Numbered from the stretch's first letter, positions 128-30,897 are shown. The stretch is 32,000 nucleotides of DNA from Candidatus Methylomirabilis limnetica (GCF_003044035.1 NZ_NVQC01000030.1:1-32000); one strand, 5' to 3'. Notes: a model not told the origin generated them from the sequence alone. Numbers and translations are program-made.

Positions 128-416
128 GTAACTACTCAGGTAGATAGGCTGTAGGCTGGTAACTGCTCTAGGTAGATAGACTGTAGGCTTTTAGACTGTA
201 GGAACGCACCATGCACAAAGACTAACAGCCTTCAGCCTACAGCCTAAACACCTATTCAGGTAGATAGACTGTAGGAACGCGCACACAGATGAGCCAGGCG
301 TTTTTCGAATGCGACGCGAAAATTATGGAGACCGAAAAGGTTCTGGGCTCCTTGATTCGGTCCATGCACAAAGACTAACAGCCTTCAGCCTACAGCCTAA
401 ACACCTGAGTAGTTAC
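128..416. mobile_element. Composite or nested MITE-like element with GTAACTACTCAG termini and GGCTGTA/GGCTGAA heptamer arms
   Basis: Starts GTAACTACTCAGGTAGATAGGCTGTAGGCTG (128-158) and ends ...CAGCCTAAACACCTGAGTAGTTAC (416), so the termini are inverted. A second arm GTAACTGCTCTAGGTAGATAGACTGTAGG starts at 159 and a third partial arm TCAGGTAGATAGACTGTAGGAACGC lies at 256-280. A 45-nt block CCATGCACAAAGACTAACAGCCTTCAGCCTACAGCCTAAACACCT occurs twice (209-253, 362-406). The flanks do not match (TTAATATC vs TGAAACGC). Confidence 0.6.
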
Positions 417-5983: not shown

Positions 5984-6028
5984 GACAGTACAGTTGTTTT
6001 GGCTGCCCCTGTAAGGAAGGAGATCTGC

Positions 6029-6646
6029 ATGCAGTGCGAGATGGTCCCGAAAACTCTTGAGGCATGTTGCAAGGCCGTTGAGCTGAATCCTGAGAACGTC
6101 GAAGCCCGGTATCAGCTTGCACTGGCGTACCATCAGGCGAGGCGGGTGAAGGAAGCGATAGCGGAGATGCAACGAGTGGTCATTCTGGATCCTAAGTACC
6201 TCGCCGCCCACTGTCAACTCAGCCTTTGGTATTACGGGCGATGCATGTTCCACGCCGCCATTGAAGCCACCAAAAAGGTCTTGGTCCTGGACCCCACCAA
6301 CCCTTGGGCCAACTATCGAATAGCGAGGTCCTACTTCCATCTGGGCAAGCTGGACCTGGCCATACAGAGTTTTGGGAAGGTGCTGGAGGCGGACCCCACC
6401 CATATCATCGTGCATTACGACCTTGGCATTATCTATGAGCGGAGACGGATGTGGCACGACGCGATCCGGGAATTCTCACAGGTGGTGTCCGAGAATCCTG
6501 AGGATTCCTCCTCCCACTTCCACCTGGGACTTGCCTATAAGCGGCTGGGAAACCGCGACCTGGCCGTCGGGGCATTCATGGCGGCCCTGAATCTCAATGC
6601 CGAAGACACCGCGTCCCTCGAACAGTTGCACGCCCTCCAAGGGTAA
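6029..6646 (+). CDS. Tetratricopeptide (TPR) repeat protein
   Basis: Repeated ~34-aa units with the A..Y.LA.AY...G....A pattern (YQLALAYHQARRVKEAIAEMQRVV, YRIARSYFHLGKLDLAIQSFGKVL, HFHLGLAYKRLGNRDLAVGAFMAAL). The ORF opens at TTG 5999, but ATG 6029 follows AGGAAGGAG (6014-6022). Confidence 0.8.
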   Translation: MQCEMVPKTLEACCKAVELNPENVEARYQLALAYHQARRVKEAIAEMQRVVILDPKYLAAHCQLSLWYYGRCMFHAAIEATKKVLVLDPTNPWANYRIARSYFHLGKLDLAIQSFGKVLEADPTHIIVHYDLGIIYERRRMWHDAIREFSQVVSENPEDSSSHFHLGLAYKRLGNRDLAVGAFMAALNLNAEDTASLEQLHALQG

Positions 6647-11014: not shown

Positions 11015-11027
11015 GACGTGTTTTCCT

Positions 11028-11182
11028 GTAACTACTCAGGTGTTTAGGCTGAAGGCTGAAGGTTCTAAATTATCTCGCAAGGCACGAATCGAGCCATTCA
11101 AGACCTTTTCTGAGTTTTCTTTGATCACGCATAACTTACCCCTAAAAGCCTTCAGCCTTCAGCCTATCTACCTTGTAGTTAC
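11028..11182. mobile_element. MITE (155 bp) with a perfect 8-bp target-site duplication
   Basis: Left end GTAACTACTCAGGTGTTTAGGCTGAAGGCTGAAGG. The reverse complement of the right end is GTAACTACAAGGTAGATAGGCTGAAGGCTGAAGG. Flanked by GTTTTCCT at 11020-11027 and again at 11183-11190. The core is highly similar to the inverted copy at 26053-26219. Confidence 0.8.
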
Positions 11183-11189
11183 GTTTTCC

Positions 11190-11321
11190 TTATCCAGTGG
11201 ATAGGAGATGCACGATTCCCCGCATTGGGCAGATCGCGCAGTTGGGCTTGCGGGCGGTACAGATGAGCGCGCCAAAGTCCAGCGCAGGAGTCGCTGCTGG
11301 AATTTTCGCCTGATGGCGGGA
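11190..11321 (-). pseudogene. Remnant of an A/G-specific adenine glycosylase (MutY/Nth-type Fe-S cluster loop)
   Basis: A minus frame reads ...PALDFGALICTARKPNCAICPMRGIVHLLSTG*, close to E. coli MutY [29 protein letters not shown]. C-X6-C-X2-C spacing is kept but the fourth Cys position is Val. There is no start codon: TGA lies immediately upstream at 11322-11324, leaving only 43 codons. Confidence 0.55.
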
Positions 11322-11418
11322 TCAGGGAAGTGATTGTTGACGGGCGGCATGGGCCGTAGTATAAGAAGTTGTAGGGTCGATTTCAATACCATTCAGGCAT
11401 TCACCACCGGCTGTCAGC

Positions 11419-11473
11419 GTAAGGGCAGGGCTTGTGCCGTGCCCGGAGAGGGCGCAGCAAGCAGCGCCCCTAC
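11419..11473. repeat. Composite GC-rich hairpin repeat (family R2)
   Basis: GTAAGGGCAGGGCTTGTGCCGTGCCCGGAGAGGGCGCAGCAAGCAGCGCCCCTAC. The terminal GGGCGC-AGCAAGCA-GCGCCC hairpin plus CTAC recurs at 23404-23427 and 28586-28609. Confidence 0.7.
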
Positions 11474-11521
11474 ATCGCTAATAGCTGATTGCTGAACGAC
11501 TAAAAGGGAGTGAGGACATAG

Positions 11522-12994
11522 ATGGCGACGCAACTGATGAAACCGGAGCGATTTTTCCTGGAGAAGTTCGGGCTGACGGAGCGGCATCTGGAACGGGGAC
11601 TGGGGGCCGCCCTTGGCCGACAGATCGATGACGCTGATCTCTACTTCGAGTACCGGATCAGCGAGTCCATGCTGCTCGAGGAGGGGATAATCAAGCAGGC
11701 GACAAAGAACATCAACCAGGGGGTCGGCGTCCGGGCCCTCGCCCATGAGAAGACCGGGTACGCCTTTTCCGACGAGATCAGCGTAGAGAACCTGGAACTC
11801 GCCGGCGCCCGAGCCAAGGGGATCGCTGAGCGGGCGGGCGTTGGGACTCCTCCACCGGTGAAGGTTGGCGGCACGCCTCCCCATGATCTGTACCCGGTTC
11901 ACCTCCAGCCAATAGAGATTCCGCTGGAGAAAAAAATCGATCTGCTCCAGCGAATCGATGCCATCGCCAGGAGCGCAGACCCCCGGATCGTCCAGGTGAT
12001 GGCATCATTTGCCTGCGAGTCCAAGATCGTTCTGATCGCGACCTCTGCCGGCGTCATGGTCGGCGACATCCAGCCGCTCTCTCGCCTGAACATCACCTGC
12101 ATCGCCCAAGAGGGCGACAACAGGCAGGTCGGGAGCTGGGGCGGAGGCGGCCGGGCCGACTTTGAGTTCTTCCTGGAGGGGGGCCGCTTCGAGCGCTACG
12201 CCAAAGAGGCCGCCCGCCTGGCCATCATGAACCTCAGCGCGGCCGACGCGCCCGCCGGAACGATGGACGTCGTCCTCGGCCCAGGATGGCCCGGGATCTT
12301 GCTGCACGAGGCTATCGGCCACGGCCTTGAAGGCGACTTCAACCGGAAGAAGACCTCGGCCTTCTCTGATCGGATCGGGCAGCAGGTGGGCTCTCCGCTT
12401 GTTACCGTAGTGGACGATGGCACGATCCCCGGACGCCGTGGCTCGCTGAATATCGATGACGAGGGAACGCCGACCGGACGCACGGTTCTGATCGAGCGCG
12501 GGATCCTGCGGGGGTATCTGCAAGATCGCTTGAATGCGCGCCTGATGGGAATGGAACCCACAGGCAACGGCCGACGCGAGAGCTATGCCTATCAGCCGCT
12601 CCCACGCATGACCAACACATTCATGCTGCCTGGCGACTCGACGCAAGAGGAGATCATCAGATCTGTCAAGCACGGCCTGTACGCCGTGACCTTCGGCGGC
12701 GGCCAAGTGGACATCACGAGCGGCAAGTTCGTCTTTTCGGCCAGCGAGGCCTACATGATTGAGGACGGGAAGGTCACAATGCCGGTCAGGGGCGCAACGT
12801 TGATCGGCCACGGCCCGGATGTTCTCACCAGGGTTACCATGGTAGGCAATGATCTTTCACTGGACGAGGGGGTTGGGACGTGCGGTAAGGACGGTCAATC
12901 GGTCCCCGTAGGCGTGGGCCTCCCTACCATCAAGATCGAGGGGCTGACAGTGGGCGGGACCCAGGGCATGCCAAAGGGGGAGCGAAGCCAATGA
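11522..12994 (+). CDS. tldD: Metalloprotease TldD
   Basis: 490 aa with the HEAIGHGLEGD zinc motif and a typical TldD C-terminus. GGGAGTGAGGA lies upstream of the ATG. A 4-nt overlap joins it to pmbA. Confidence 0.92.
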   Translation: MATQLMKPERFFLEKFGLTERHLERGLGAALGRQIDDADLYFEYRISESMLLEEGIIKQATKNINQGVGVRALAHEKTGYAFSDEISVENLELAGARAKGIAERAGVGTPPPVKVGGTPPHDLYPVHLQPIEIPLEKKIDLLQRIDAIARSADPRIVQVMASFACESKIVLIATSAGVMVGDIQPLSRLNITCIAQEGDNRQVGSWGGGGRADFEFFLEGGRFERYAKEAARLAIMNLSAADAPAGTMDVVLGPGWPGILLHEAIGHGLEGDFNRKKTSAFSDRIGQQVGSPLVTVVDDGTIPGRRGSLNIDDEGTPTGRTVLIERGILRGYLQDRLNARLMGMEPTGNGRRESYAYQPLPRMTNTFMLPGDSTQEEIIRSVKHGLYAVTFGGGQVDITSGKFVFSASEAYMIEDGKVTMPVRGATLIGHGPDVLTRVTMVGNDLSLDEGVGTCGKDGQSVPVGVGLPTIKIEGLTVGGTQGMPKGERSQ

Positions 12995-14334
12995 TCAGCC
13001 GGCAGATCGTCGAGGAAGTCCTGCAAGAGGCAAAGCGAAAAGGCGCCACAGCGGCTGACTTGGTGCTGATCGAGAATGAGCTGGTCACAGCTCAGGTCAG
13101 GCTAAGGGAGACCGAAACGCTCCGAAGCGCCAAAGAGGTCCGACTTGGGTTGCGGCTTTTTTTCGACAAACGGTCGGCCACCAGCTCCACCTCAGACCTC
13201 TCCAAGGAGTCGCTCGCGCGATTGGTGGAGGATACTGCCGTCCTGGCAAAGGCAATCGCCCACGATGAGTGCTCGGGGCTGCCGCCGGCGGAAGAGTGCG
13301 CCAAGAGCATCCCGGATCTTGATCTGTACGATCCTGACGGCGAGGCCCTCACCGTCAAGGACCAGATCGATCGAGCCAGGACGGCTGAGGATGCGGCCCT
13401 GTCCTATGACAGCAGGATCACCAATTCCGAGGGGGCAGAGTTCGCGAGCAACCTCTATCGGATCATCTACGGCAGCAGCCAGGGCTTTCTGGGTGAGTAT
13501 CGAGGCTCGACCTTCAGCCTAGCGGTGACACCCATCGCCTCGTCTGAGGACGGCATGCAACGCGATCACTGGTACTCGCGCGCCAGGCACCTGGGCGCCA
13601 TGGAGTCGCCTGAAGCGATTGGGAAGCGGGCGGCCGAGCGAACCCTCAGGCGCCTGGGCGCACGGAAGATCAAGACCCAGGAGGTCCCGGTGATCTTCGA
13701 CCCTGATACCGCTGCCAATCTCATGCGCATCTTCTGTTCTGCGCTCTTCGGTCCAGCCCTCTACCGTGGGGCCTCATTTCTGATCGACAGGCTGGGTGAT
13801 CGGATCGCCGCTGAGAGTATCTCTATATACGACGATGGCACATTACCCGGCCATCTTGGCTCAAAGCCGTTCGATGGCGAGGGACTCCCAACCCGCCGGA
13901 ATGCCATCGTAGAAAATGGCGTCCTGCGCAGCTACCTCCTCGATAGCTATTCCGCCCGCAAGCTCGGGATGAAGCCGACCGGCAGCGCGGCTCGAGGCGC
14001 CGGCGATTCCCCAACCCCCTGGCCGACGAACTTTTACCTTCAGTCCGGGTCGCACGAGCCGGCTGAGATCATTCGATCGGTGGACGCCGGACTCTATGTC
14101 ACCGAACTGATCGGTTTCGGCGTGAACCTCGTCACAGGAGACTACTCGCAGGGCGCGGTGGGGTTCTGGATAGAGAAGGGTGAGCTGACCTACCCGGTAG
14201 AGGAGATCACCATCGCCGGTAACCTCAAGGAGATGCTCTTGGGGATCGAGATGGTAGGTAATGACCTGATATTTCGCAGCAGCGTCGTCGCCCCCACCCT
14301 CAAGATCCGCCGCATGACCGTCGCCGGGCACTGA
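12991..14334 (+). CDS. pmbA: Metalloprotease PmbA (TldE)
   Basis: 447-aa TldD/PmbA-family protein lacking the HExxH motif, translationally coupled to tldD, as expected for PmbA. Confidence 0.9.
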   Translation: MISRQIVEEVLQEAKRKGATAADLVLIENELVTAQVRLRETETLRSAKEVRLGLRLFFDKRSATSSTSDLSKESLARLVEDTAVLAKAIAHDECSGLPPAEECAKSIPDLDLYDPDGEALTVKDQIDRARTAEDAALSYDSRITNSEGAEFASNLYRIIYGSSQGFLGEYRGSTFSLAVTPIASSEDGMQRDHWYSRARHLGAMESPEAIGKRAAERTLRRLGARKIKTQEVPVIFDPDTAANLMRIFCSALFGPALYRGASFLIDRLGDRIAAESISIYDDGTLPGHLGSKPFDGEGLPTRRNAIVENGVLRSYLLDSYSARKLGMKPTGSAARGAGDSPTPWPTNFYLQSGSHEPAEIIRSVDAGLYVTELIGFGVNLVTGDYSQGAVGFWIEKGELTYPVEEITIAGNLKEMLLGIEMVGNDLIFRSSVVAPTLKIRRMTVAGH

Positions 14335-15094: not shown

Positions 15095-15381
15095 GGGAGC
15101 GCACGATCGCGCGGAGTTCATTCGGTTGGTAGACGAAGGCCTCTCCATCACAACTCATCGGCCCCGGCGTGAACCTCGTCACAGGCGACTACTCGCAGAG
15201 CGCGGTGGGGTTCTGGATCGAGAAGGGTGAGCTGACCTACCCGGTAGAGGAGATCACCATTGCCGGTAACCTCAAGGAGATGCTCTTGGGGATCGAGATG
15301 GTCGGTAATGACCTGACATTTCGCAGCAGCGTCATCGCCCCCACCCTCAAGATCCACCGCATGACCGTCGCCGGACACTAA
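15095..15381 (+). pseudogene. Orphan duplicate of the pmbA 3' end
   Basis: 15166-15381 aligns base for base with 14119-14334 (216 nt, 10 mismatches counted by eye). 15095-15165 is a much more diverged match to 14047-14118, with a 1-nt length difference that breaks the frame. It begins 2 nt after the RelE-family stop. Confidence 0.85.
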
Positions 15382-15743: not shown

Positions 15744-17336
15744 CTACTGCACCGTCACCGACAGATAGTCATAGACCCCGTTCAGATTCAGGCCGGCGCT
15801 GGTATCGATATTGAGGTGGCCATCCACGACAAAGTCACAGCCCAGGTACAGTTCATAGGTTCCCACCGGGGCGGTGTCGGAATAGAGCGAGTAGACGCCA
15901 TCAGCTTGCCCACTACTCAGATACGGGGTGACAACCGAGAGATCCGCTGGAAGCGGTACCCACCCAAGGGCGCCAAGGTACGACCAGGGCATTCCCATGG
16001 CCGGAGCGTTGACGACCAGAAATATCTCCTTGTCGCTGCATCCTTGGACAGTATAGGTAACCGTCACAGGATTCGTTAGGGCCGGTCCTGGGCCGGAGCC
16101 GACAGCCTCCAACTCAACCGACGGGCTGCTAGCCAGGATGATCTCATGGTTACCGTCGGAGTTGCCGCCGGTCAGGTTGCTGGTGGAAACGAAAGCGATC
16201 CGGGTACCGTCGGCGTTGAGGGATGGATCGAAGCTGTCGCCCCCGGTGGTGGCGGTAAGCTGGATGAAGCCAAAGACGGAGGTCCAGAGGAAGATTTCGG
16301 AATTGCTGTCGGGGTTGCTGCCGGTCAGGTTGCGATTGGAGCGAAAGGCGATTCGTGTACCGTCGGCGGAGATGGAGGGATCCCAGTTGTAACCCCCGGT
16401 GGTGGTGGTGACTTGGGTGAAGCCGGAGCCGGAGGTCCAGAGGAAGATCTCAGAATTACCATCGGAGTTGCTGCCGGTCAGGTTACTGGTGGAAACAAAG
16501 GCGATTTTGGTGCCGTCAGCGGAAATAGAGGGACTGTCGCTCCCGCCTCCGGTGGTGGTGGTAACCTGGGCGAGACCGAAACCGTTAGTCCAGAGGAAGA
16601 TCTCAGAGTTGCCGCCCGGGTTGCCACCGGTCAGGTCGTGGGTGGAGTAAAAGGCGATCCTGGTGCCGTCAGCGGAGATGGAGGGGTTGTAGTGGGTGCT
16701 AGCACCGTTGGTAGCCGTAAGCTGGGTGAAAACGGACCCGGCAGTCCAAAGGAAGATCTCAGGATTACCATCGAGATTACCGCCAGTAACCAGGTTGCGG
16801 TCGGAGCCAAAGGCGATGCGGGTGCCGTCGGCATTGATGGAGGGGGCGAAGTTTTGGCCTCCAGTGGTATTAGTGACCTGGATGAAGCCGGAGCCTGAGG
16901 TCCAGAGGAAGATCTCATTGTTGCCGTCGGAGTTGCTCCCGGTCAGATTGCGGGTGGATAGAAAAGCAATTCGAGTACCATCGGCGGAAATAGAGGGGTA
17001 GGAGTAGGTGCTGTCCCCGGTAGTGTCAGTGATCTGGGTAAAGCCGGATCCGGCAGTCCAAAGGAAAATCTCCCAGTTACCGTCGAGATTGCTATTCTGG
17101 ACCAGGTCGCGGCTGGAGCGAAAGGCGATTCGTGTACCGTCGGCGGAGATGGAGGGGCTGGCGCTACCGTCCCCGATGGTGGTGGTGAGTTGGGTATGCG
17201 TGAACTGGGCCTCGGAGATCACGGGGTTCCACCAGGCAACCAACGTTATGGCCGCAATCGCAACAACGTACCGCCACCACATATTTATCCCCATGTCTCT
17301 GAATGTGTACCACTTTAGTCCTATCGCACTCCGCAT
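15744..17336 (-). CDS. Secreted or membrane-anchored 7-bladed PD40 (TolB-like) beta-propeller protein with an unassigned ~125-aa C-terminal domain
   Basis: Seven consecutive ~51-aa units of the form Q(V/L)TTTTGG...PSISADGTRIAF.S.RNLTGSN.DGN.EIFLWTSGSGF. Hydrophobic N-terminal segment WWRYVVAIAAITLVAWW. The ORF opens at 17438, next to the dnaE stop codon. I prefer ATG 17336, which is preceded by GGAGGGGG; ATG 17294 and 17282 are also possible. Confidence 0.85.
   Translation of the reverse strand: MRSAIGLKWYTFRDMGINMWWRYVVAIAAITLVAWWNPVISEAQFTHTQLTTTIGDGSASPSISADGTRIAFRSSRDLVQNSNLDGNWEIFLWTAGSGFTQITDTTGDSTYSYPSISADGTRIAFLSTRNLTGSNSDGNNEIFLWTSGSGFIQVTNTTGGQNFAPSINADGTRIAFGSDRNLVTGGNLDGNPEIFLWTAGSVFTQLTATNGASTHYNPSISADGTRIAFYSTHDLTGGNPGGNSEIFLWTNGFGLAQVTTTTGGGSDSPSISADGTKIAFVSTSNLTGSNSDGNSEIFLWTSGSGFTQVTTTTGGYNWDPSISADGTRIAFRSNRNLTGSNPDSNSEIFLWTSVFGFIQLTATTGGDSFDPSLNADGTRIAFVSTSNLTGGNSDGNHEIILASSPSVELEAVGSGPGPALTNPVTVTYTVQGCSDKEIFLVVNAPAMGMPWSYLGALGWVPLPADLSVVTPYLSSGQADGVYSLYSDTAPVGTYELYLGCDFVVDGHLNIDTSAGLNLNGVYDYLSVTVQ
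16130..17192 (-). repeat. Seven tandem 153-bp coding repeats (the propeller blades)
   Basis: The landmark CCGGTCAGG recurs at 16168, 16321, 16474 and 16627, an exact 153-nt spacing. Degenerate equivalents follow at about 16786 (6-nt insertion), 16939 and 17095. Confidence 0.85.
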
Positions 17337-17434
17337 CGCCCCCTCCGTCTGAAAGTTAACGCCCGTCGACAAACAGCAACGCTCCCGTCTGTTCCTCACA
17401 AATACGCTGCAGATTCCTGACGGGGTCTCCGAGA

Positions 17435-20400
17435 TCACGCGCCGGTGATCGTACCCGGGCCCAACAGGGCCTCCACCTCTCGCCTGAGCAGCTCGTCCGC
17501 TGCGACGGTCATGTCTGGCGATGCGGCAATAGTCACCTGGGCACCTGGCGCAACGCTCAGGTGGAGCTTGACAGGAACGGGTCCAGGAAATCTCAGTAGC
17601 AGGCCTTTGAGCTGCTCCAGTTGCGGGGCGGACAGGTGCGATTCCTCTACCGTGATCTCCACTATCGACCTTCCGTTGCGCCTGGCGTTCGCAAGAGGAC
17701 TCACCTCCGTCAAGAGCAACTTGACCACCTCTTCGCCCACATCCACCTGTCCCTTTACCAGAACGGCCACATCCTTCACCAGGTGGAGCAGGTTCGCCTT
17801 GTAGAGCTCAGGAAATACTACCGCCTCTACCGTTCCGACCATATCTTCGAGCGTCACGAAGGCCATCCGCTCTCCGTTCTTTGTGGCGATCTCCTTGATG
17901 GCGACCACGATGGCGCATAGCGTGACCGTCTCTTTGTCCTGGCAGGTCGCGAGGCGATCGGTGGTAACAGCCGCAACCTTCGCGATGACATCCCGATAAG
18001 CGGCCAGCGGGTGGCCGGTGACGTAGAAGCCTAACGTCTCCTTTTCGGCGGCCAAGCGTAGGCTTGCCGACCACTCCGGGATGACTGGCAGCGCTCCTGC
18101 CTGGTGGCCGAGCCCGCCCTTCGTCTCCAGGACATCCAGCATTGAGACCTGGCCATGGACCCGCTCCCGCTGTACGCCGGCACCAGCCTCCATCGCCTTG
18201 TCCGCAACAGCCATGAGCTGAGCCCTCGCCGCCCCGAGAGAGTCGAATGCCCCGCACTTGATCAGACTTTCGATCACCCGTTTATTTACGAGGCGCAGGT
18301 CCACCCGCTCGCAGAAGTCGAAGATGGAGCGCAAAGGACCTTTGCCCCGCCGTGTGGCCAGGATCGACTGGATAGCCGTCTCACCGACATTCTTGATGGC
18401 CACCAGCCCGAATCGAATCTGCTCCCCCACGACGGTAAAGCTGCTTTCCGACTCGTTGACATCCGGTGGCAGAACCGTGATCCCCATCTGTCTGCACTCG
18501 TCGATGTATTTGGCGATCTTGTCGGTATCAGCCATCCCGGAGGTAAGGAGGGCCGCCATGAACTCAACCGGGTAATGGGCCTTGAGGTAGGCGGTCTGAT
18601 AGGCCACGATGGCGTAAGCAGTCGCGTGGGGTTTGTTGAAGGCATACCCCGCGAAGGGGGCCATTTTATCAAAGACCTTTTCCGCCGTCCGCGCCGGGAT
18701 CTTTTTCGCCTTCGCCCCGTCGACAAATTTCTTCCGCTGTTGATCCATCATCTCGGGGTCTTTCTTGCCCATCGCCTTACGCAGCACATCCGCCTCTCCC
18801 ATTGAGAAACCGGCAAGATCCGAGGCGATCCGCATCACCTGTTCCTGGTAGACCATGATCCCATAGGTTTCTTTGAGGATCGTCTCCATCAACGGGTGGT
18901 CGTAGCGGATCTTGACCTTACCATGCTTGCGGTCGATAAAGTCATCGATCATCACCATCGGTCCGGGTCGGTAGAGCGCCACGATGGCGATGACGTCCTC
19001 CAGCCGTTCCGGCTTCAGACGCCGCATCAGATCCCGCATCCCCGAGGATTCCAGTTGAAACACCCCGAAGGTCCGCGCCTCGCTGAGCAGTTGGAAGATC
19101 GCCGGGTCATCGAGGGGGATCTCCTCGATCTTAAACCTATGCCCGCGTCCCGCCGCGATCAGTTCCAGGGTGTTGGCGATGACCGTCAGGGTCCGAAGCC
19201 CCAGAAAGTCGATCTTCAACAGGCCAATCGTCTCGATGCCCTTCATGGCGTACTGGGTCGTCGGCTTGCTGCCGGCCTTTGAATCTTTGTAGAGCGGGAC
19301 ATGCTCGGTGAGTGGGTCGCCGGAGATCACGACACCCGCCGCGTGGGTTGAGGCGTGCCGTGTCAGTCCCTCCAGACATTTGGCAATCCGCCACAGCTCC
19401 TCCACCTCTGCCCGGCTCTGCACCGCCTCGGTAAGCGGTGGGCTCTCGGCAATCGCCTCGTCCAGACTGATATTGATCCGATTGGGGACCAACTTGGCGA
19501 TCTTATCCACCTCGGAATAGGGCATCCCCAGGCCCCGCCCGACGTCCCGGATGACCGCCTTGGCGCCCATCGTCCCGAACGTGATAATCTGGGCTACATT
19601 GTCGGCTCCATATTTCCTGGTCACATATTCGATCACCTCATCTCGCCGATCATCGCTGAAGTCGATGTCCATATCCGGCATACTGATCCGTTCGGGGTTC
19701 AGGAACCGTTCAAAGATCAGGCCGTACCGGAGCGGATCGATGTTGGTGATGCCAAGGCAGTAGGCAACCAGCGAGGCAGCCGCCGAGCCACGGCCAGGAC
19801 CGACTGAGATCCCCCGATCCTTGGCGTACTTGATGAAGTCCCAGACCACCAGGAAGTAACCGGCGAAGCCGGTCTTTTGGATGACCTCCAGCTCGTACTT
19901 CATGCGCGTCTCAACCTCGGCATTCACATCCGGGTAACGGACCTTCAGTCCCTCCCAGGCCAAATGGGCCAGATAGGTCTCGATCGTATACCCCTCTGGC
20001 GCCTGGTACTTGGGCAGGCGGAGCTGGCCGAACTGGAGCTGGAGGTTGCAGCGCTCGGCCACGGTAATAGTGTTCTTAACCGCCTCCGGCAGCTCGACAA
20101 AGACCTGCTTCATCTCCGCTGCCGATTTGAAGTAGAACTGATCGGTAGAAAAGCGCCACCGATCCTTGTCCTGAATCGTCTTCCCGGTCTGAATGCAGAG
20201 CAGCACCTCGTGGGCACGCGCATCTTCTTTGCTGGGATAGTGCAGGTCGTTGGTGGCGACAATCGGCAGCTCGAAGGCCTTGGCGAGTCGCAAGATGCCC
20301 TCAGCGACCTTTTTCTGCTCGGCCATTCCGTGGTCCTGAATCTCTAAAAAGTAGTTCTCACGCCCTAGCGCCTCGGTATACCAACTGACAGTCTCCCTCG

Positions 20401-23342: not shown

Positions 23343-23427
23343 CAGCTTTCAGCGATCAGCCGTCAGCGATCGGTGTAGGGGCAGGGCCTGCCCTGCCCAA
23401 AGAGGGCGCAGCAAGCGGCGCCCCTAC
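23343..23427. repeat. Heptamer array plus an R2 composite hairpin repeat
   Basis: CAGCTTT CAGCGAT CAGCCGT CAGCGAT (23343-23370), then GTAGGGGCAGGGCCTGCCCTGCCCAAAGAGGGCGCAGCAAGCGGCGCCCCTAC (23375-23427). This fills the guaB-guaA spacer. Confidence 0.7.
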
Positions 23428-23444
23428 GCGGCTGAACGCTGTTC

Positions 23445-24932: not shown

Positions 24933-25039
24933 GAGTTTCGAGTCTCGGGTTTAGAGTTTCGAGTTTGAGGAACTCCCGAATCTCCTTTCAACTCAGAACT
25001 TGGTACTCCGAACTCGAAACTCGGAACGCGAAACTCGAA
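24933..25039. repeat. Inverted heptamer-array element between trpS and guaB
   Basis: Left arm GAGTTTC GAGTCTC GGGTTTA GAGTTTC GAGTTTG (24933-24967). Right arm ACTCAGA ACTTGGT ACTCCGA ACTCGAA ACTCGGA ACGCGAA ACTCGAA (24991-25039), which is the reverse complement of the same heptamer. The core between them is ~23 nt. Confidence 0.75.
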
Positions 25040-25044
25040 ACGGG

Positions 25045-26031: not shown

Positions 26032-26052
26032 CGACGAATGTGCTCCTTTTCC

Positions 26053-26219
26053 GTAACTACTCAGATAGGTAGATAGGCTGAAGGCTGAAGGCTCTTAGGG
26101 GTAAGTCATGCGTGATCATACAAAACTCCGAAAAGGTCTTGAATGGCTCGTTTCGTGCCGTGCAAGATAATTTAGAACCTTCAGTCTTCAGTCTTCAGCC
26201 TAAACACCTGAGTAGTTAC
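26053..26219. mobile_element. MITE (167 bp), same family as 11028-11182 but inverted, with a 7/8 target-site duplication
   Basis: Left end GTAACTACTCAGATAGGTAGATAGGCTGAAGGCTGAAGG. Right end ...CAGCCTAAACACCTGAGTAGTTAC. Its reverse complement aligns along the whole length with 11028-11182. Flanks are CCTTTTCC (26045-26052) and CCTTTGCC (26220-26227). Confidence 0.8.
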
Positions 26220-26230
26220 CCTTTGCCCTG

Positions 26231-26896: not shown

Positions 26897-26967
26897 CCAG
26901 CCTAAATTAGCCTGAACTTACCGTAACAAAGGGGACCCCCCTTGTCAATCCCGAAGGCTCCCCTGAG

Positions 26968-27124
26968 GTAACCATTCAGTTACGGGTGGAAAATCTCCCC
27001 TAACCCCTCTTCTCCAAAGAGGGGGACTAACCGTTTCCCCCTTTGGAAAAGGGGGATTAAGGGGGATTTTATAAAAAACACCACATTTTCTTTAATGATT
27101 TTCCCCCTCTCACTGAATGGTTAC
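26968..27124. mobile_element. MITE-like element with related termini GTAACCATTCAG and a 7/8 target-site duplication
   Basis: GTAACCATTCAGT (26968-26980) and ACTGAATGGTTAC (27112-27124) are perfect inverted repeats. Flanks are CCCCTGAG (26960-26967) and CCCCTGGG (27125-27132). The interior consists of CCCCTCTT..AAGAGGGG and CCCCCTTTGGAAAAGGGGG hairpins. The terminus resembles GTAACTACTCAG of the other copies. Confidence 0.7.
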
Positions 27125-28432
27125 CCCCTGGGCGACGCGCTGAAGGACAAACGAGGTCTCATCCTCTTTGGTGCGGAGGCGCCCGTCCAGCTTGGCCGAG
27201 CGCAGGGCGGCAAGGATCCTCCGATAGATGGGGCCGGGCTGGAACCCCAACCGGCCCAGATCCCCCCCTTTGAGCAGCGGCACAACGCTCCATGAGGTGG
27301 CGAGATATTCGGAGACCGCCTCCTGCGCCGATCCTTTCACAAGTCCGGCCAGGAGCACGATCCTGGCCTCCGGTGAAAGGGGATCGAGAAGCCGGGCGAT
27401 CCGGCTTTGGCGAAGATCGATGGCGCGTGTCAGCTTCTGCACAGCTTGTCGACATGCCTTGTGGTCGGCCGCAAGCTTCTCGGCAATCCCTTGGGGCGGG
27501 GTGAGCCTTGTGAGGATGGCAACAACCGTCCTTGGATGCAACAGATAGAGCATCCCAAGGAGAAGTACCTCATCTTCTGCTGCTCCCTCCAGTAACGGCA
27601 TCGATGATGCCTGAGTGAGTATCCGCCCCACGCGTTCGAGCAGACCGAAGGCGGCAGCAGGGAGGGCGAGCTTCGGATGAATAGCCGTCAATACGTCCAG
27701 ATCCCCAAGACGCCTGATGATGCGGGAAGCGGATGGTTCCTTCGCAATCAGGTAGAGCTCCCTGAAAATTCTCGAACCGGTAAGATGCCTGATCACTCCC
27801 CCCTTCACTGCAGCCTTCATCAACCGCAAGGTGCCTCGAGCAATAACAAACCGGTATCGGCCCTCAAACCGGGCTGTTCTGAAGAGCCGGGTGGGGTCGT
27901 CGATGAAACTCCGCTCGTGTAGGACTCTGATCCGCCCGCGCTCCAGGTCCCGGAGTCCTTCCAGTGGATCAATGAGCGGTCCGAACCGATGACGGTCGAT
28001 GCGGGCAGCCATAGCATTGATGCTGAAATCCCGTCGAAGCAGATCGGCGAGCAGTGGGGCGGGTTGAACCTCCGGCAGCGCGGCAGCATGCGGGTATCGT
28101 TCCGACCTGGCGGTGGCGAGATCGAGCGTTCTGCTCCCCGATCGGCGTCGGGGACAGGCCCCAGGAAGCCGTAGGTGGGCAGTTCCGAACCTTGGGTGAG
28201 ACGTCATCACTGCCCTGAGGAAGTGCGCCAGACGTTTGGCCGCAGCGATCGCATCGCCCTCAACTACCAGATCGATATCAACATTGCCCTGGCCAAGGAG
28301 CAGGTCCCGCACATAGCCGCCGACAACATAGATCGGCGAAGGGGCGGCAGCCCTGCGTGCAGCCTCCAGCGCCCTCCGGCTGAGAGGGTCAAGCTTTCGG
28401 AATTGTGGAAGCTGCATCACATGCGTTGACAT
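27110..28432 (-). CDS. tRNA nucleotidyltransferase / poly(A) polymerase family protein (CCA-adding type)
   Basis: GGYVRDLLLGQGNVDIDLVVEG nucleotidyltransferase motif, RRDFSINAMA, and a long C-terminal extension. The ORF opens at 28540 inside the repeat cluster. ATG 28432 (MSTHVMQLP) is preferred, and 28417 is possible. The last four codons and the stop lie inside the MITE terminus. Confidence 0.8.
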   Translation of the reverse strand: MSTHVMQLPQFRKLDPLSRRALEAARRAAAPSPIYVVGGYVRDLLLGQGNVDIDLVVEGDAIAAAKRLAHFLRAVMTSHPRFGTAHLRLPGACPRRRSGSRTLDLATARSERYPHAAALPEVQPAPLLADLLRRDFSINAMAARIDRHRFGPLIDPLEGLRDLERGRIRVLHERSFIDDPTRLFRTARFEGRYRFVIARGTLRLMKAAVKGGVIRHLTGSRIFRELYLIAKEPSASRIIRRLGDLDVLTAIHPKLALPAAAFGLLERVGRILTQASSMPLLEGAAEDEVLLLGMLYLLHPRTVVAILTRLTPPQGIAEKLAADHKACRQAVQKLTRAIDLRQSRIARLLDPLSPEARIVLLAGLVKGSAQEAVSEYLATSWSVVPLLKGGDLGRLGFQPGPIYRRILAALRSAKLDGRLRTKEDETSFVLQRVAQGVTIQ

Positions 28433-28440
28433 CGTTATTG

Positions 28441-28652
28441 CCTCGAAAGCCCCCCCACCCGTCCCCTCCCCCCCGGATCGAGTCCGGGGCAGGCTCTCCG
28501 AGGGGGGAGGGTTAAGGAGGGGGTGCGTCGCACCTCGCACTTAGGGCAGCCACAAGGGCTGCCCCTACATGTCGTACCCTGCACCGGGCGCAGCAAGCAG
28601 CGCCCCTACGCACTTCGCACCCCTACACCCTACACCCTATACCCTAAACCCT
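28441..28652. repeat. Cluster of three hairpin families plus a heptamer array
   Basis: Contains CCCTCCCCCC...GGGGGGAGGG (28464-28511), the R1 hairpin CTTAGGGCAGCCACAAGGGCTGCCCCTAC (28540-28568), the R2 hairpin GGGCGCAGCAAGCAGCGCCCCTAC (28586-28609), and CACCCCT ACACCCT ACACCCT ATACCCT AAACCCT (28618-28652). Confidence 0.7.
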
Positions 28653-29545: not shown

Positions 29546-29580
29546 GTCAGCTGTCAGCTGACAGCTATTAGCTATCAGCT
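29546..29580. repeat. Heptamer array containing an 18-bp perfect palindrome
   Basis: GTCAGCT GTCAGCT GACAGCT ATTAGCT ATCAGCT. AGCTGTCAGCTGACAGCT (29549-29566) is a perfect palindrome. The array spans the 23-nt gap between the GT4 stop and the xerD start and extends into the last GT4 codons. Confidence 0.8.
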
Positions 29581-30722
29581 GCCCTTGTTAGGAGCCGCTC
29601 GTAGGCTTCGAGCAGCCGTGCGGCCGAGGCTTCGGCCGTCATCTGCATCGCCCTCACCCTGCCCTGCTCGGCGTAGCGATGGAGGCTCGCCCCATCGCGA
29701 AGCAACGTGAGCAAGCGCTGGACGAAATCATTCTCGGCATCATTGGCCAGCGCGCCGTTTACTCCATCGACAATGAAATCCGAGGTGCCAACAGACCGGA
29801 CGGCCAAGACGGGGAGCCCGTGCGCCATCGCTTCGAGCACGACCAGGCCTTGGGTCTCCGAGACAGACGGAAAGACAAAGAGGTCCGCAGCCCGATACCA
29901 GCAGCCCACAGCCTGGTGCGGAACCGGGCCCACAAAGTGGACGCGGTCAGCGATGTCCAGATGGGTGGCCAGCCGCTGTAACGACCGCTCCTCATCCCCC
30001 TCCCCGACTACCAACAAAGTGAGGTTGGGCGCACCCCGAATCGCGGCGCGGACTGCCCGCAGGAGCAACTCGAGATTCTTTTCCCTGGCCAGCCGCCCCA
30101 CGTACAAGAGGACCGGCCCGTCCTCCGGCACACCCAGGCGACGCCGAATCTGGGTCTTCGATTCCTCCGGCTCTTCCGGCGGCTCGATCCCCGTTGGAAT
30201 CACTTCAATGGGAGAGGTGACCCCATGGGTGAGCAGCCGCTCCTGCACCCCTGAAGTGGGCGCGATGACCAGATCGGCCTGGTTGGCGAAGGCATAGCTC
30301 CGGGCCTCCGCGATCCTGGCAGCCAGGGGCGAGACGACCGGCAGGTAATGGGCATAATGCTCGTACAGCGTATGATAGGTAAACACGCACGGGACTCGTA
30401 GACGGCGAGCCAATCGGCGGGCGTAAGGCCCGACAAGGAACGGGTGGTGAGCATGGATGACCTGCAGCCCAAGGCGTGGAATCAGACGACGAAGCCCCAC
30501 GGCGGCGGCTGGAATCGGCAAGGCATAGCGGTGATGTGTCGGAACGCGCAGCGATGGGAACCGGTAGGTGTCGGGCTCTACCTCCTGGCGGCCCGGGTAA
30601 CGCGGTGCAAAGATAAAGACCCGGTGGCCGAGGCGACGCAGGTGAAGGGCAAATTGTTGAATGGAGACCGCGAGGCCGTTCAGCAGCGGGGAGGCGTTGC
30701 AGGTAAAAAAACCGATCCGCAC
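29568..30722 (-). CDS. Glycosyltransferase family 4 (group 1)
   Basis: GT4 C-terminal pattern: GRLAREKNLELLL ... FVFPSVSETQGLVVLEAMAHGLPVLA. The ORF opens at 30749 inside an R1 repeat. GTG 30722 (VRIGFFTCN...) matches typical GT4 N-termini. Confidence 0.85.
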   Translation of the reverse strand: MRIGFFTCNASPLLNGLAVSIQQFALHLRRLGHRVFIFAPRYPGRQEVEPDTYRFPSLRVPTHHRYALPIPAAAVGLRRLIPRLGLQVIHAHHPFLVGPYARRLARRLRVPCVFTYHTLYEHYAHYLPVVSPLAARIAEARSYAFANQADLVIAPTSGVQERLLTHGVTSPIEVIPTGIEPPEEPEESKTQIRRRLGVPEDGPVLLYVGRLAREKNLELLLRAVRAAIRGAPNLTLLVVGEGDEERSLQRLATHLDIADRVHFVGPVPHQAVGCWYRAADLFVFPSVSETQGLVVLEAMAHGLPVLAVRSVGTSDFIVDGVNGALANDAENDFVQRLLTLLRDGASLHRYAEQGRVRAMQMTAEASAARLLEAYERLLTRAADS

Positions 30723-30726
30723 CCAG

Positions 30727-30890
30727 CACCTCGCACTTAGGGCAGCCACGAGGGACTGCCCCTACGCTTCGCACTTCGCAGTACCAAGCACGGCAAATCC
30801 CCCCGTGCCCCCCTTTTGTAAAGGGGGGGTGGGGGGTTTTTGTACCCCGCGCTTAGGGCAGCCACAAGGGCTGCCCCTACACTTCGTATC
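30727..30890. repeat. Two R1 hairpins flanking a poly-C/poly-G hairpin
   Basis: CTTAGGGCAGCCACGAGGGACTGCCCCTAC (30736-30765), CCCCCCTTTTGTAAAGGGGGGG within 30786-30840, and CTTAGGGCAGCCACAAGGGCTGCCCCTAC (30852-30880). Confidence 0.7.
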
Positions 30891-30897
30891 CCGCACA

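Follow-up and report, generated by a model that had tools for sequence, protein, structure and literature searches.

The ISBst12 group, a group of single-ORF elements in the IS66 family of insertion sequences, includes ISDge4 of Deinococcus geothermalis, which encodes a single 449-aa transposase, has GTGACTACTCAGCA/GTAACTGCTCAGCA as its TIRs and makes a direct repeat of 8 bp; its transposition has been observed (PMC12898284). The inverted repeats of classic IS66 elements begin GTAAGCG.../GTAACCG..., as given in the excerpted text of PMC12888890. A different kind of insert, the intervening sequence (IVS) in the 23S rRNA of Coxiella burnetii, is 444 nt long and carries S23p, and Table S3 of PMC4990558 gives its sequence; cleavage by RNase III was shown there for the IVS stem in rRNA only, and the origin and mobility of ORF-containing rRNA IVSs were called unclear in 2016, the hypotheses on offer coming from papers of 1990-1993 (PMC4990558). 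Heptamer repeats of the sequence GGGAATC form 70-75 convergent intergenic pairs per genome in Xanthomonas, and the excerpted text of PMC4692102 describes these pairs as possible G-quadruplex repeats and makes no mention of S23, four-helix or intervening sequence. In a full-text literature search, we found no paper linking PF05635 with heptamer arms or IS66.

Here we report that a 32,000-nucleotide stretch of DNA from Candidatus Methylomirabilis limnetica, analysed at its full length and referred to as the window, bears on all of these systems. Four loci in the window carry what we interpret, with a probability of about 0.85, as non-autonomous MITEs of the ISBst12 group of the IS66 family that are moved in trans, three of these loci deriving from a 453-bp cassette with a PF05635 gene.

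The exact terminal sequence GTAACYAYTCAG is found seven times in the window, compared with 0.01 times expected from dinucleotide-preserving shuffles: at 128, 11028, 26053 and 26968 on the plus strand and at 405, 26208 and 27113 on the minus strand. Both the window and the genome have 59% GC, and TrpS and MutT encoded in the window are 91 and 99% identical, respectively, to proteins of Methylomirabilis (NC10). The focal copy, a heptamer-arm MITE of 155 bp at 11028-11182 (minus strand, the orientation being taken from its remnant ORF), lies between the stop codon of a remnant HhH-GPD gene and the ribosome-binding site of mutT. The earlier note had described a perfect 8-bp repeat around this copy, and GTTTTCCT is indeed present on both sides (11020-11027 and 11183-11190; 8/8 match), the left duplication reading AGGAAAAC on the gene strand, which is the Shine-Dalgarno region of mutT. 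That description overlooked the degeneracy of the element's right tip, which on the minus strand reads GTAACTACAAGG. A second heptamer-arm MITE of 167 bp (26053-26219, plus strand) is located between the stop of an M50 peptidase gene and the start of trpS, and its target duplications, CCTTTTCC at 26045-26052 and CCTTTGCC at 26220-26227, match at 7 of 8 positions as reported before. The two copies are homologues in opposite orientation, 92% identical over 128 nt and 88% identical from end to end, and both arms of each are built of tandem AGGCTGA/TCAGCCT heptamers, in agreement with what had been claimed for them.

The locus at 128-416, previously counted as one of four elements with inverted termini, is a cluster rather than a single element, while the other three are clean. 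It consists of a solo end with one tip and a heptamer arm (128-158, plus strand), a heavily deleted copy with the tip GTAACTGCTCTAGG and two arms but without a right tip (159-253, plus strand), and a near-complete copy of a subfamily with GGCTGTA units that is without its left tip (254-416, plus strand) and is 89-91% identical to elements L163 and L122 of Methylomirabilis sp. bin48; no target duplication flanks the cluster.

The remaining element, 157 bp in length at 26968-27124, has the tip GTAACCATTCAG as a perfect inverted repeat, and the earlier report of a 7/8 duplication holds for it as well (CCCCTGAG at 26960-26967 and CCCCTGGG at 27125-27132). Its assignment to the same family does not: the interior is a palindrome of G and C runs unrelated to the other window elements, with which it shares the 12-nt tips alone, and no relative of this interior is present among the loci collected, in which the element is a singleton. 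It is a separate MITE family, an unrelated hairpin using the same tips. The element is inserted four codons ahead of the stop of a PolyA_pol-family gene, where its tip provides a new in-frame stop and changes the C-terminus of the protein from ...VAQGSLRD to ...VAQGVTIQ. All three clean elements fold into very stable hairpins (z -5 to -7.6), with -67.4 kcal/mol (z -7.6) for the long hairpin of the 11028 copy, -64.2 kcal/mol (z -5.0) for the 26053 copy and -96.1 kcal/mol (z -7.6) for the 26968 element. An Rfam scan of the window gave no match and no rRNA, and a tRNA scan of the window found none. The window elements are short, non-coding, multicopy, bounded by inverted termini and flanked by target duplications, the features by which MITEs are recognized.

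None of the elements encodes a protein, as had been noted, but this description missed the remnants of a PF05635 gene, comprising its first 7 and/or its last ~14-25 codons. In the focal copy, the remnant (11070-11132, minus strand) begins MRDQRKL..., to which the final ~14 codons of the gene with its stop are joined; in the 26053 copy, the remnant four-helix-bundle ORF (26108-26170, plus strand) has MRDHTKL joined to ...RKGLEWLVSCRAR and a stop; and the 254-416 copy keeps the last ~25 codons (about 300-377). The interiors can be read as a gene start (MRDHTKL) plus gene ends (...KGLEWLVSCRAR and ...EKVLGSLIRSMHKD, each followed by a stop). The full-length counterpart, MRDHTKLRAF...EKVLNGLIRALRDD, is found in a Desulfobacterales locus (L230) as an intact 118-aa ORF within a 453-bp cassette that has no transposase and is flanked by an 8/8 duplication, TATTTTAA; another full-length copy is present in Nitrospira (L166). 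The layout of the cassette is a tip, an arm of arrayed heptamers, the 118-aa gene, a complementary heptamer-array arm and a tip. The L230 ORF matches PF05635, named "23S rRNA-intervening sequence protein" (8e-34), and TIGR02436, named "four helix bundle protein" (2e-34); among solved structures, XCC0516 (2GSC) is the nearest to it (E 3e-26), and the ORF is distantly related to DGR Avd. The L230/L166 cassette is thus a longer element with the same ends from which the window copies can be obtained by internal deletion, and the heptamer-arm MITEs of the window are derivatives of this transposase-less cassette and not of an IS. The ORFs of L230 and L166 share 86% DNA identity, with a dS of 0.48 and a dN/dS of 0.16 across Desulfobacterales and Nitrospira, and the cargo therefore evolves under purifying selection and has been transferred from one phylum to another. 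Across distant phyla, some 24 nt at each end are nearly invariant, and near-identity of the ends at a dS of 0.48 points to frequent horizontal transfer. In locus L191, the ORF of a full-length four-helix-bundle cassette (6009-6491) is broken by a nested short heptamer-arm element, so the heptamer-arm family also inserts into itself.

The family had been put forward as undescribed, with termini unlike those of any named IS, a view overturned by the finding that the same tips bound ISBst12-group IS66 transposases, including that of ISDge4. All tips in the window start with GTAAC and hence with the 5'-GTAA of the IS66 family, and the duplications in the window (8/8, 7/8 and 7/8) have the 8-bp length typical of that family. 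When viral contigs were scanned for the bare 14-mer, most matches were due to chance, but L051, L026 and L068 were also obtained. L051, 1833 bp in length, is bounded on both sides by GTAACTACTCAGGTAGG, is flanked by the perfect 8-bp duplication TCTTTTTG and encodes a single 523-aa IS66-family transposase (PF03050, 7.7e-36; NF033517, 267 bits with a cut-off of 180). With an alignment of 22 relatives as the query, 80 metagenomic loci with L051-type transposases (33-100% identity) were collected and scored for the tip motif GT[AT]AC[TCA][AG][ACT]TCA, which was found at both ends in 57 of the 80 (element length 1.4-2.0 kb), at one end in 17, mostly on truncated contigs, and at neither end in 6. 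GTAACTACTCAG, GTAACTATTCAG and GTAACTAATCAG are the commonest tips at these loci; perfect 8-bp duplications flank 17 of the transposase elements, and in 12 the tip is identical to GTAACTACTCAGGT, the 14-nt tip of the window elements. The termini of the window elements therefore also bound IS66-family DDE transposase genes (PF03050/NF033517) in L051, in 57 of the 80 loci and in ISDge4, and the sharing of tips and 8-bp duplication with ISBst12-group elements identifies the window elements as MITEs of a named group. The two other elements from the viral contigs, both of low GC, have the same 14-nt tips: L026 (5746-5901) carries a MITE of 156 bp flanked by the 9-bp repeat CGTAAGTGC, and L068 (2946-3623) carries an IS66 element of 678 bp with an internal deletion, for which no target duplication is obvious.

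Heptamer arms are present in none of the 57 autonomous elements, and what these have in common with the cassette is confined to 12-14 nt. By tblastn, no IS66-family transposase was detected in the window or in the bin48 loci, and no autonomous copy was detected beside any heptamer-arm element in 240 loci that include those of the GTDB scan described below; about 78 kb of related Methylomirabilis loci contain no further tips. The transposase at L199 was rejected as an autonomous partner, being an unrelated, truncated classic IS66. A search of viral contigs for close relatives of the L051 transposase returned the query alone, and neither of two NCBI-sourced ISBst12-like transposases that were checked comes from MITE-rich MAGs. 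The earlier conclusion that the elements are non-autonomous and moved in trans agrees with the lack of a transposase in the window, and in this host the mover would be an ISBst12-group transposase.

A pattern scan with GTAACTACTCAGGTNNNTAGRCTG of one representative genome per GTDB species identified at least 120 loci, distributed over nine or more named lineages or phyla, and the matches listed include Methylomirabilis, Nitrospirota, Desulfobacterales/Thermodesulfobacteriota, Geobacter, Brocadiaceae, Nitrospinota, Elusimicrobia, Desantisbacteria, Bacteroidales and others. Among the matches listed, the ends pair into 76 elements, mostly of 100-195 bp, with flanking repeats that match at 8/8 positions in 31 and at 7/8 in 11; for these matches, displacement of the right 8-mer as a control never gave more than 6/8, and a 9-bp extension is found in none of the 31 perfect repeats. 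The 8-bp duplications are therefore as consistent as the earlier note had anticipated. Two "long pairs", L167 and L186, were rejected as elements, since they are unrelated neighbouring ends. The duplicated targets have 26% GC and the surrounding loci 48% GC (again among the matches listed). In a genome of 59% GC, AT-rich 8-mers lie mostly at gene junctions, which explains the Shine-Dalgarno-like targets without a special preference; the sites at mutT and trpS do lie on such sequences, as had been pointed out, but AT-richness accounts better for their choice. After duplication, mutT and trpS are each still preceded by an intact 8-mer whose distance from the ATG is unchanged.

All three clean sites in the window (mutT, trpS and PolyA_pol) are empty in related Methylomirabilis genomes, and the comparison with relatives suggested earlier hence shows that the elements were inserted and are not ancestral. 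The gene order PolyA_pol-M50 peptidase-trpS is kept in Methylomirabilis sp. GCA_028716865, M. oxyfera and M. lanthanidiphila, where the M50-trpS spacer is 20-27 bp long, has no insert and contains one related copy of the 8-mer; the trpS and PolyA_pol sites are empty in five relatives (L242-L246). At mutT, L344-L346, L349 and L350 have the empty site and L347/L348 the filled one. In L344-L346, three assemblies whose MutT is 99% identical to that of the window at the protein level (98.3% for the DNA) and whose upstream flank differs by a single SNP over about 170 nt, the junction reads ...GGATAAGGAAAACACGTCATG, with a single AGGAAAAC and no element. This is a textbook filled/empty polymorphism, and with one site differing between 98%-identical strains the elements have been recently active in this genome. 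L349 and L350, in which the site is also empty, belong to more distant lineages. In L347/L348, whose mutT is only 85% identical, a copy at 2332-2487 occupies the same mutT site in the same orientation and with the same duplication, and it is 92% identical to the 11028-11182 copy and thus less diverged than the flanking gene. A filled site in L347/L348 and an empty one in the closer lineage mean either that one 8-mer was targeted on two occasions or that the element was inserted earlier and then precisely lost.

Next to the focal element, the minus strand of 11191-11330 contains a frameshifted 3' remnant of a gene for an HhH-GPD (MutY/Nth-like) glycosylase with the Fe-S cluster motif LDFGALICTARKPNCAICPMRG, and the remnant ends at a TAA that abuts the Shine-Dalgarno sequence of mutT. 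An intact HhH-GPD gene (238-246 aa) is located between tldD and mutT in L347-L350, and its deletion is common to the window and its closest relatives, L344-L346.

The heptamer arms also occur with PF05635 genes that have no IS tips. In the Coxiella IVS, (CAGATGA)n and its complement lie immediately on either side of the PF05635 ORF, with heptamer numbers that vary between strains; the ORF product is 32% identical to the cassette protein (E 1.5e-18), and the IVS sequence has no GTAAC tips. An upstream tandem array with its reverse complement downstream accompanies 16 of 17 PF05635 genes from viral contigs, with a period of 7, or of 8 in two, the sole exception being a 5'-truncated match, while among 25 window ORFs used as a control, none has an inverted repeat of comparable score between its flanks. 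The repeat unit differs by lineage (GGCTGTA, GGACTGTT, TCGGCNT, ACGTTAC, GGGAATT and GGAGAGT). Heptamer arrays around tip-less PF05635 genes indicate that the arms belong to the cargo module and not to the IS, and in the tipped family the heptamer/PF05635 module has acquired ISBst12-type tips. The arm architecture of an IVS, a PF05635 ORF within complementary arms, is found in the parent cassette, and the window copies retain only remnants of the ORF. No element lies inside an rRNA gene among the loci collected, and the window has no rRNA; a 15-mer match in L159, considered as a possible rRNA insertion, was rejected as a chance match in a protein-coding region.

Other repeats are also present in the window. 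A tip-less inverted heptamer hairpin at 24933-25041, between guaB and trpS, has 4.9 copies of GAGTTTC and 7.4 of the GAAACTC type around a 23-nt loop, with neither GTAAC ends nor an ORF, and it looks like the arms of another four-helix-bundle cassette lineage. Further intergenic heptamer arrays are found at 23349-23371 (TCAGCGA x3.3), 28621-28652 (CCCTACA x4.6) and 29546-29581 (GTCAGCT x5.1), and the intergenic DNA of this genome seems to contain such arrays quite generally. Two intergenic REP-like families, GGGCGC-AGCAAGC-GCGCCCCTAC and GGGCAGCC-ACAA-GGGCTGCCCCTAC, both GC-rich hairpins followed by CCCTAC, are unrelated to the GTAAC elements and occur at 11435-11487, 23389-23441 and 28571-28623 and also at 28516-28584, 30726-30780 and 30828-30896. 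A 564-aa ORF with a repeat domain (15744-17438, minus strand), which adjoins an 1146-aa ORF, contains ~6.6 tandem copies of a 153-nt (51-codon) unit that match at 71% (16135-17194). A 228-nt direct repeat, 94% identical (14105-14332 and 15152-15379, 1047 nt apart), duplicates the 3' end of the gene at 12991-14334.

To account for the insertions, we propose that an ISBst12-group DDE transposase, encoded elsewhere in the genome now or formerly, would recognize the 12-14 nt tips GTAACTAYTCAG[GT] and make an 8-bp staggered cut, preferentially in AT-rich DNA, into which the element would be inserted; repair of the stagger would leave the 8-bp target duplication. The copies at 128-416, 11028 and 26053 arose by deletion of about 290 bp inside the cassette gene. 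It is conceivable instead, but improbable, that the cassette moves by its own means, through the four-helix-bundle protein or by recombination of heptamer arrays, and that the GTAAC tips are incidental. The tip-less PF05635 genes with inverted heptamer arrays (16/17 viral-contig loci and the Coxiella IVS) must have spread without tips, and no partner transposase is seen in the window or in related Methylomirabilis loci, both of which speak for such a route. It does not account for duplications that are exactly 8 bp in 31/31 perfect cases among the matches listed and lie directly outside the tips, a footprint of the DDE transposase type that matches IS elements with the same tips; moreover, copies with a deleted gene are still freshly inserted, so the protein is not needed in cis.

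An 8-bp target duplication is not unique to the IS66 family, being made also by, for example, IS256, ISL3, IS1 and IS6. Movement by another transposase family of this kind would fit the duplications equally, and the window of this genome shows no partner transposase that would decide the matter, but the tips agree exactly, over 12-17 nt, with those around IS66-family transposase genes in 57 of 80 loci and also with those of ISDge4, and no other transposase family was found with these tips, which makes this alternative very improbable. Least credible of all is that the elements are native, conserved regulatory hairpins, such as terminators, attenuators or REP/REPIN-like sequences. They are very stable hairpins at gene junctions, as such a reading would have it, but the orthologous sites are empty in five to seven relatives and hold a single 8-mer, by which this reading is refuted, and the same element occurs at unrelated sites in unrelated phyla and has no Rfam match. 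To our knowledge, REP/REPIN elements make no target duplication. The 8-bp duplications here are consistent, which differs from REP/REPIN elements with their lack of target duplication and their association with RAYT; REP/REPIN, CRISPR and native terminators were all rejected on account of the empty sites and target duplications.

The elements have landed in translation-initiation regions and gene ends of housekeeping operons (mutT, trpS and PolyA_pol/CCA-type enzyme). Together with their recent activity, this makes them useful as markers of strains, and they may modify the expression of operons: the hairpins may affect the expression of mutT, trpS or PolyA_pol, and by analogy with the IVS stem, RNase III might cut them in mRNAs. 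More tentatively, and with rather less than even confidence, we suggest that a PF05635 gene with inverted, lineage-specific heptamer arrays could be one ancient, self-contained hairpin module that resides in chromosomes, phage-like contigs and rRNA genes, of which the classical ORF-bearing 23S IVS would be one manifestation and the ISBst12-tipped family the first identified vehicle between sites and phyla. If so, the 7-nt periodicity with freely changing sequence would imply a structural or protein-binding role of the arms, either as a stem for RNase III, through which the insert could be excised from whatever host transcript contains it, or as an array bound by the encoded protein and co-evolving with it. 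The family brings together ISBst12-group IS66 elements, an uncharacterised PF05635 protein and intergenic heptamer arrays, which are treated separately in the papers found. The IS group that owns these tips was already known; the link of ISBst12 ends, a PF05635 gene and inverted heptamer arrays is not made in the papers searched. A cassette of IVS architecture with transposon ends and target duplications makes the question of IVS origin testable.

Compared with the Coxiella IVS, the cassette is of similar size (453 and 444 nt, respectively) and has a homologous ORF, complementary heptamer arms and a long terminal stem, whereas the IVS replaces the loop of 23S helix 45 and lacks both GTAAC tips and a target duplication; the window elements also differ from IVSs in lying in mRNA-coding regions and not in rRNA. 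The Xanthomonas pairs, compared here by description only, are likewise inverted intergenic heptamer arrays and come from the genus of the solved PF05635 structure XCC0516, but the description in the excerpted text of PMC4692102 includes no IS tips or target duplications. With the ISBst12 group, as represented by ISDge4, the window elements share the terminal sequence (GTGACTACTCAGCA/GTAACTGCTCAGCA in ISDge4 and GTAACTACTCAGGT here) and the 8-bp duplication; the heptamer-arm copies in the window differ in being only 155-167 bp long, in having no transposase and in having heptamer arms. They resemble MITEs and mobile insertion cassettes in combining IS ends without a transposase, target duplications and many copies, and the 453-bp parent, a passenger gene between IS-type ends, resembles mobile insertion cassettes in particular. 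The passenger-carrying IS66 element ISPa75-fosZ is different in that it retains its transposase genes, according to the excerpted text of PMC12888890. Unlike in known cassettes, the passenger here is a PF05635 gene that lies inside its own inverted heptamer arrays and is carried in many phyla.
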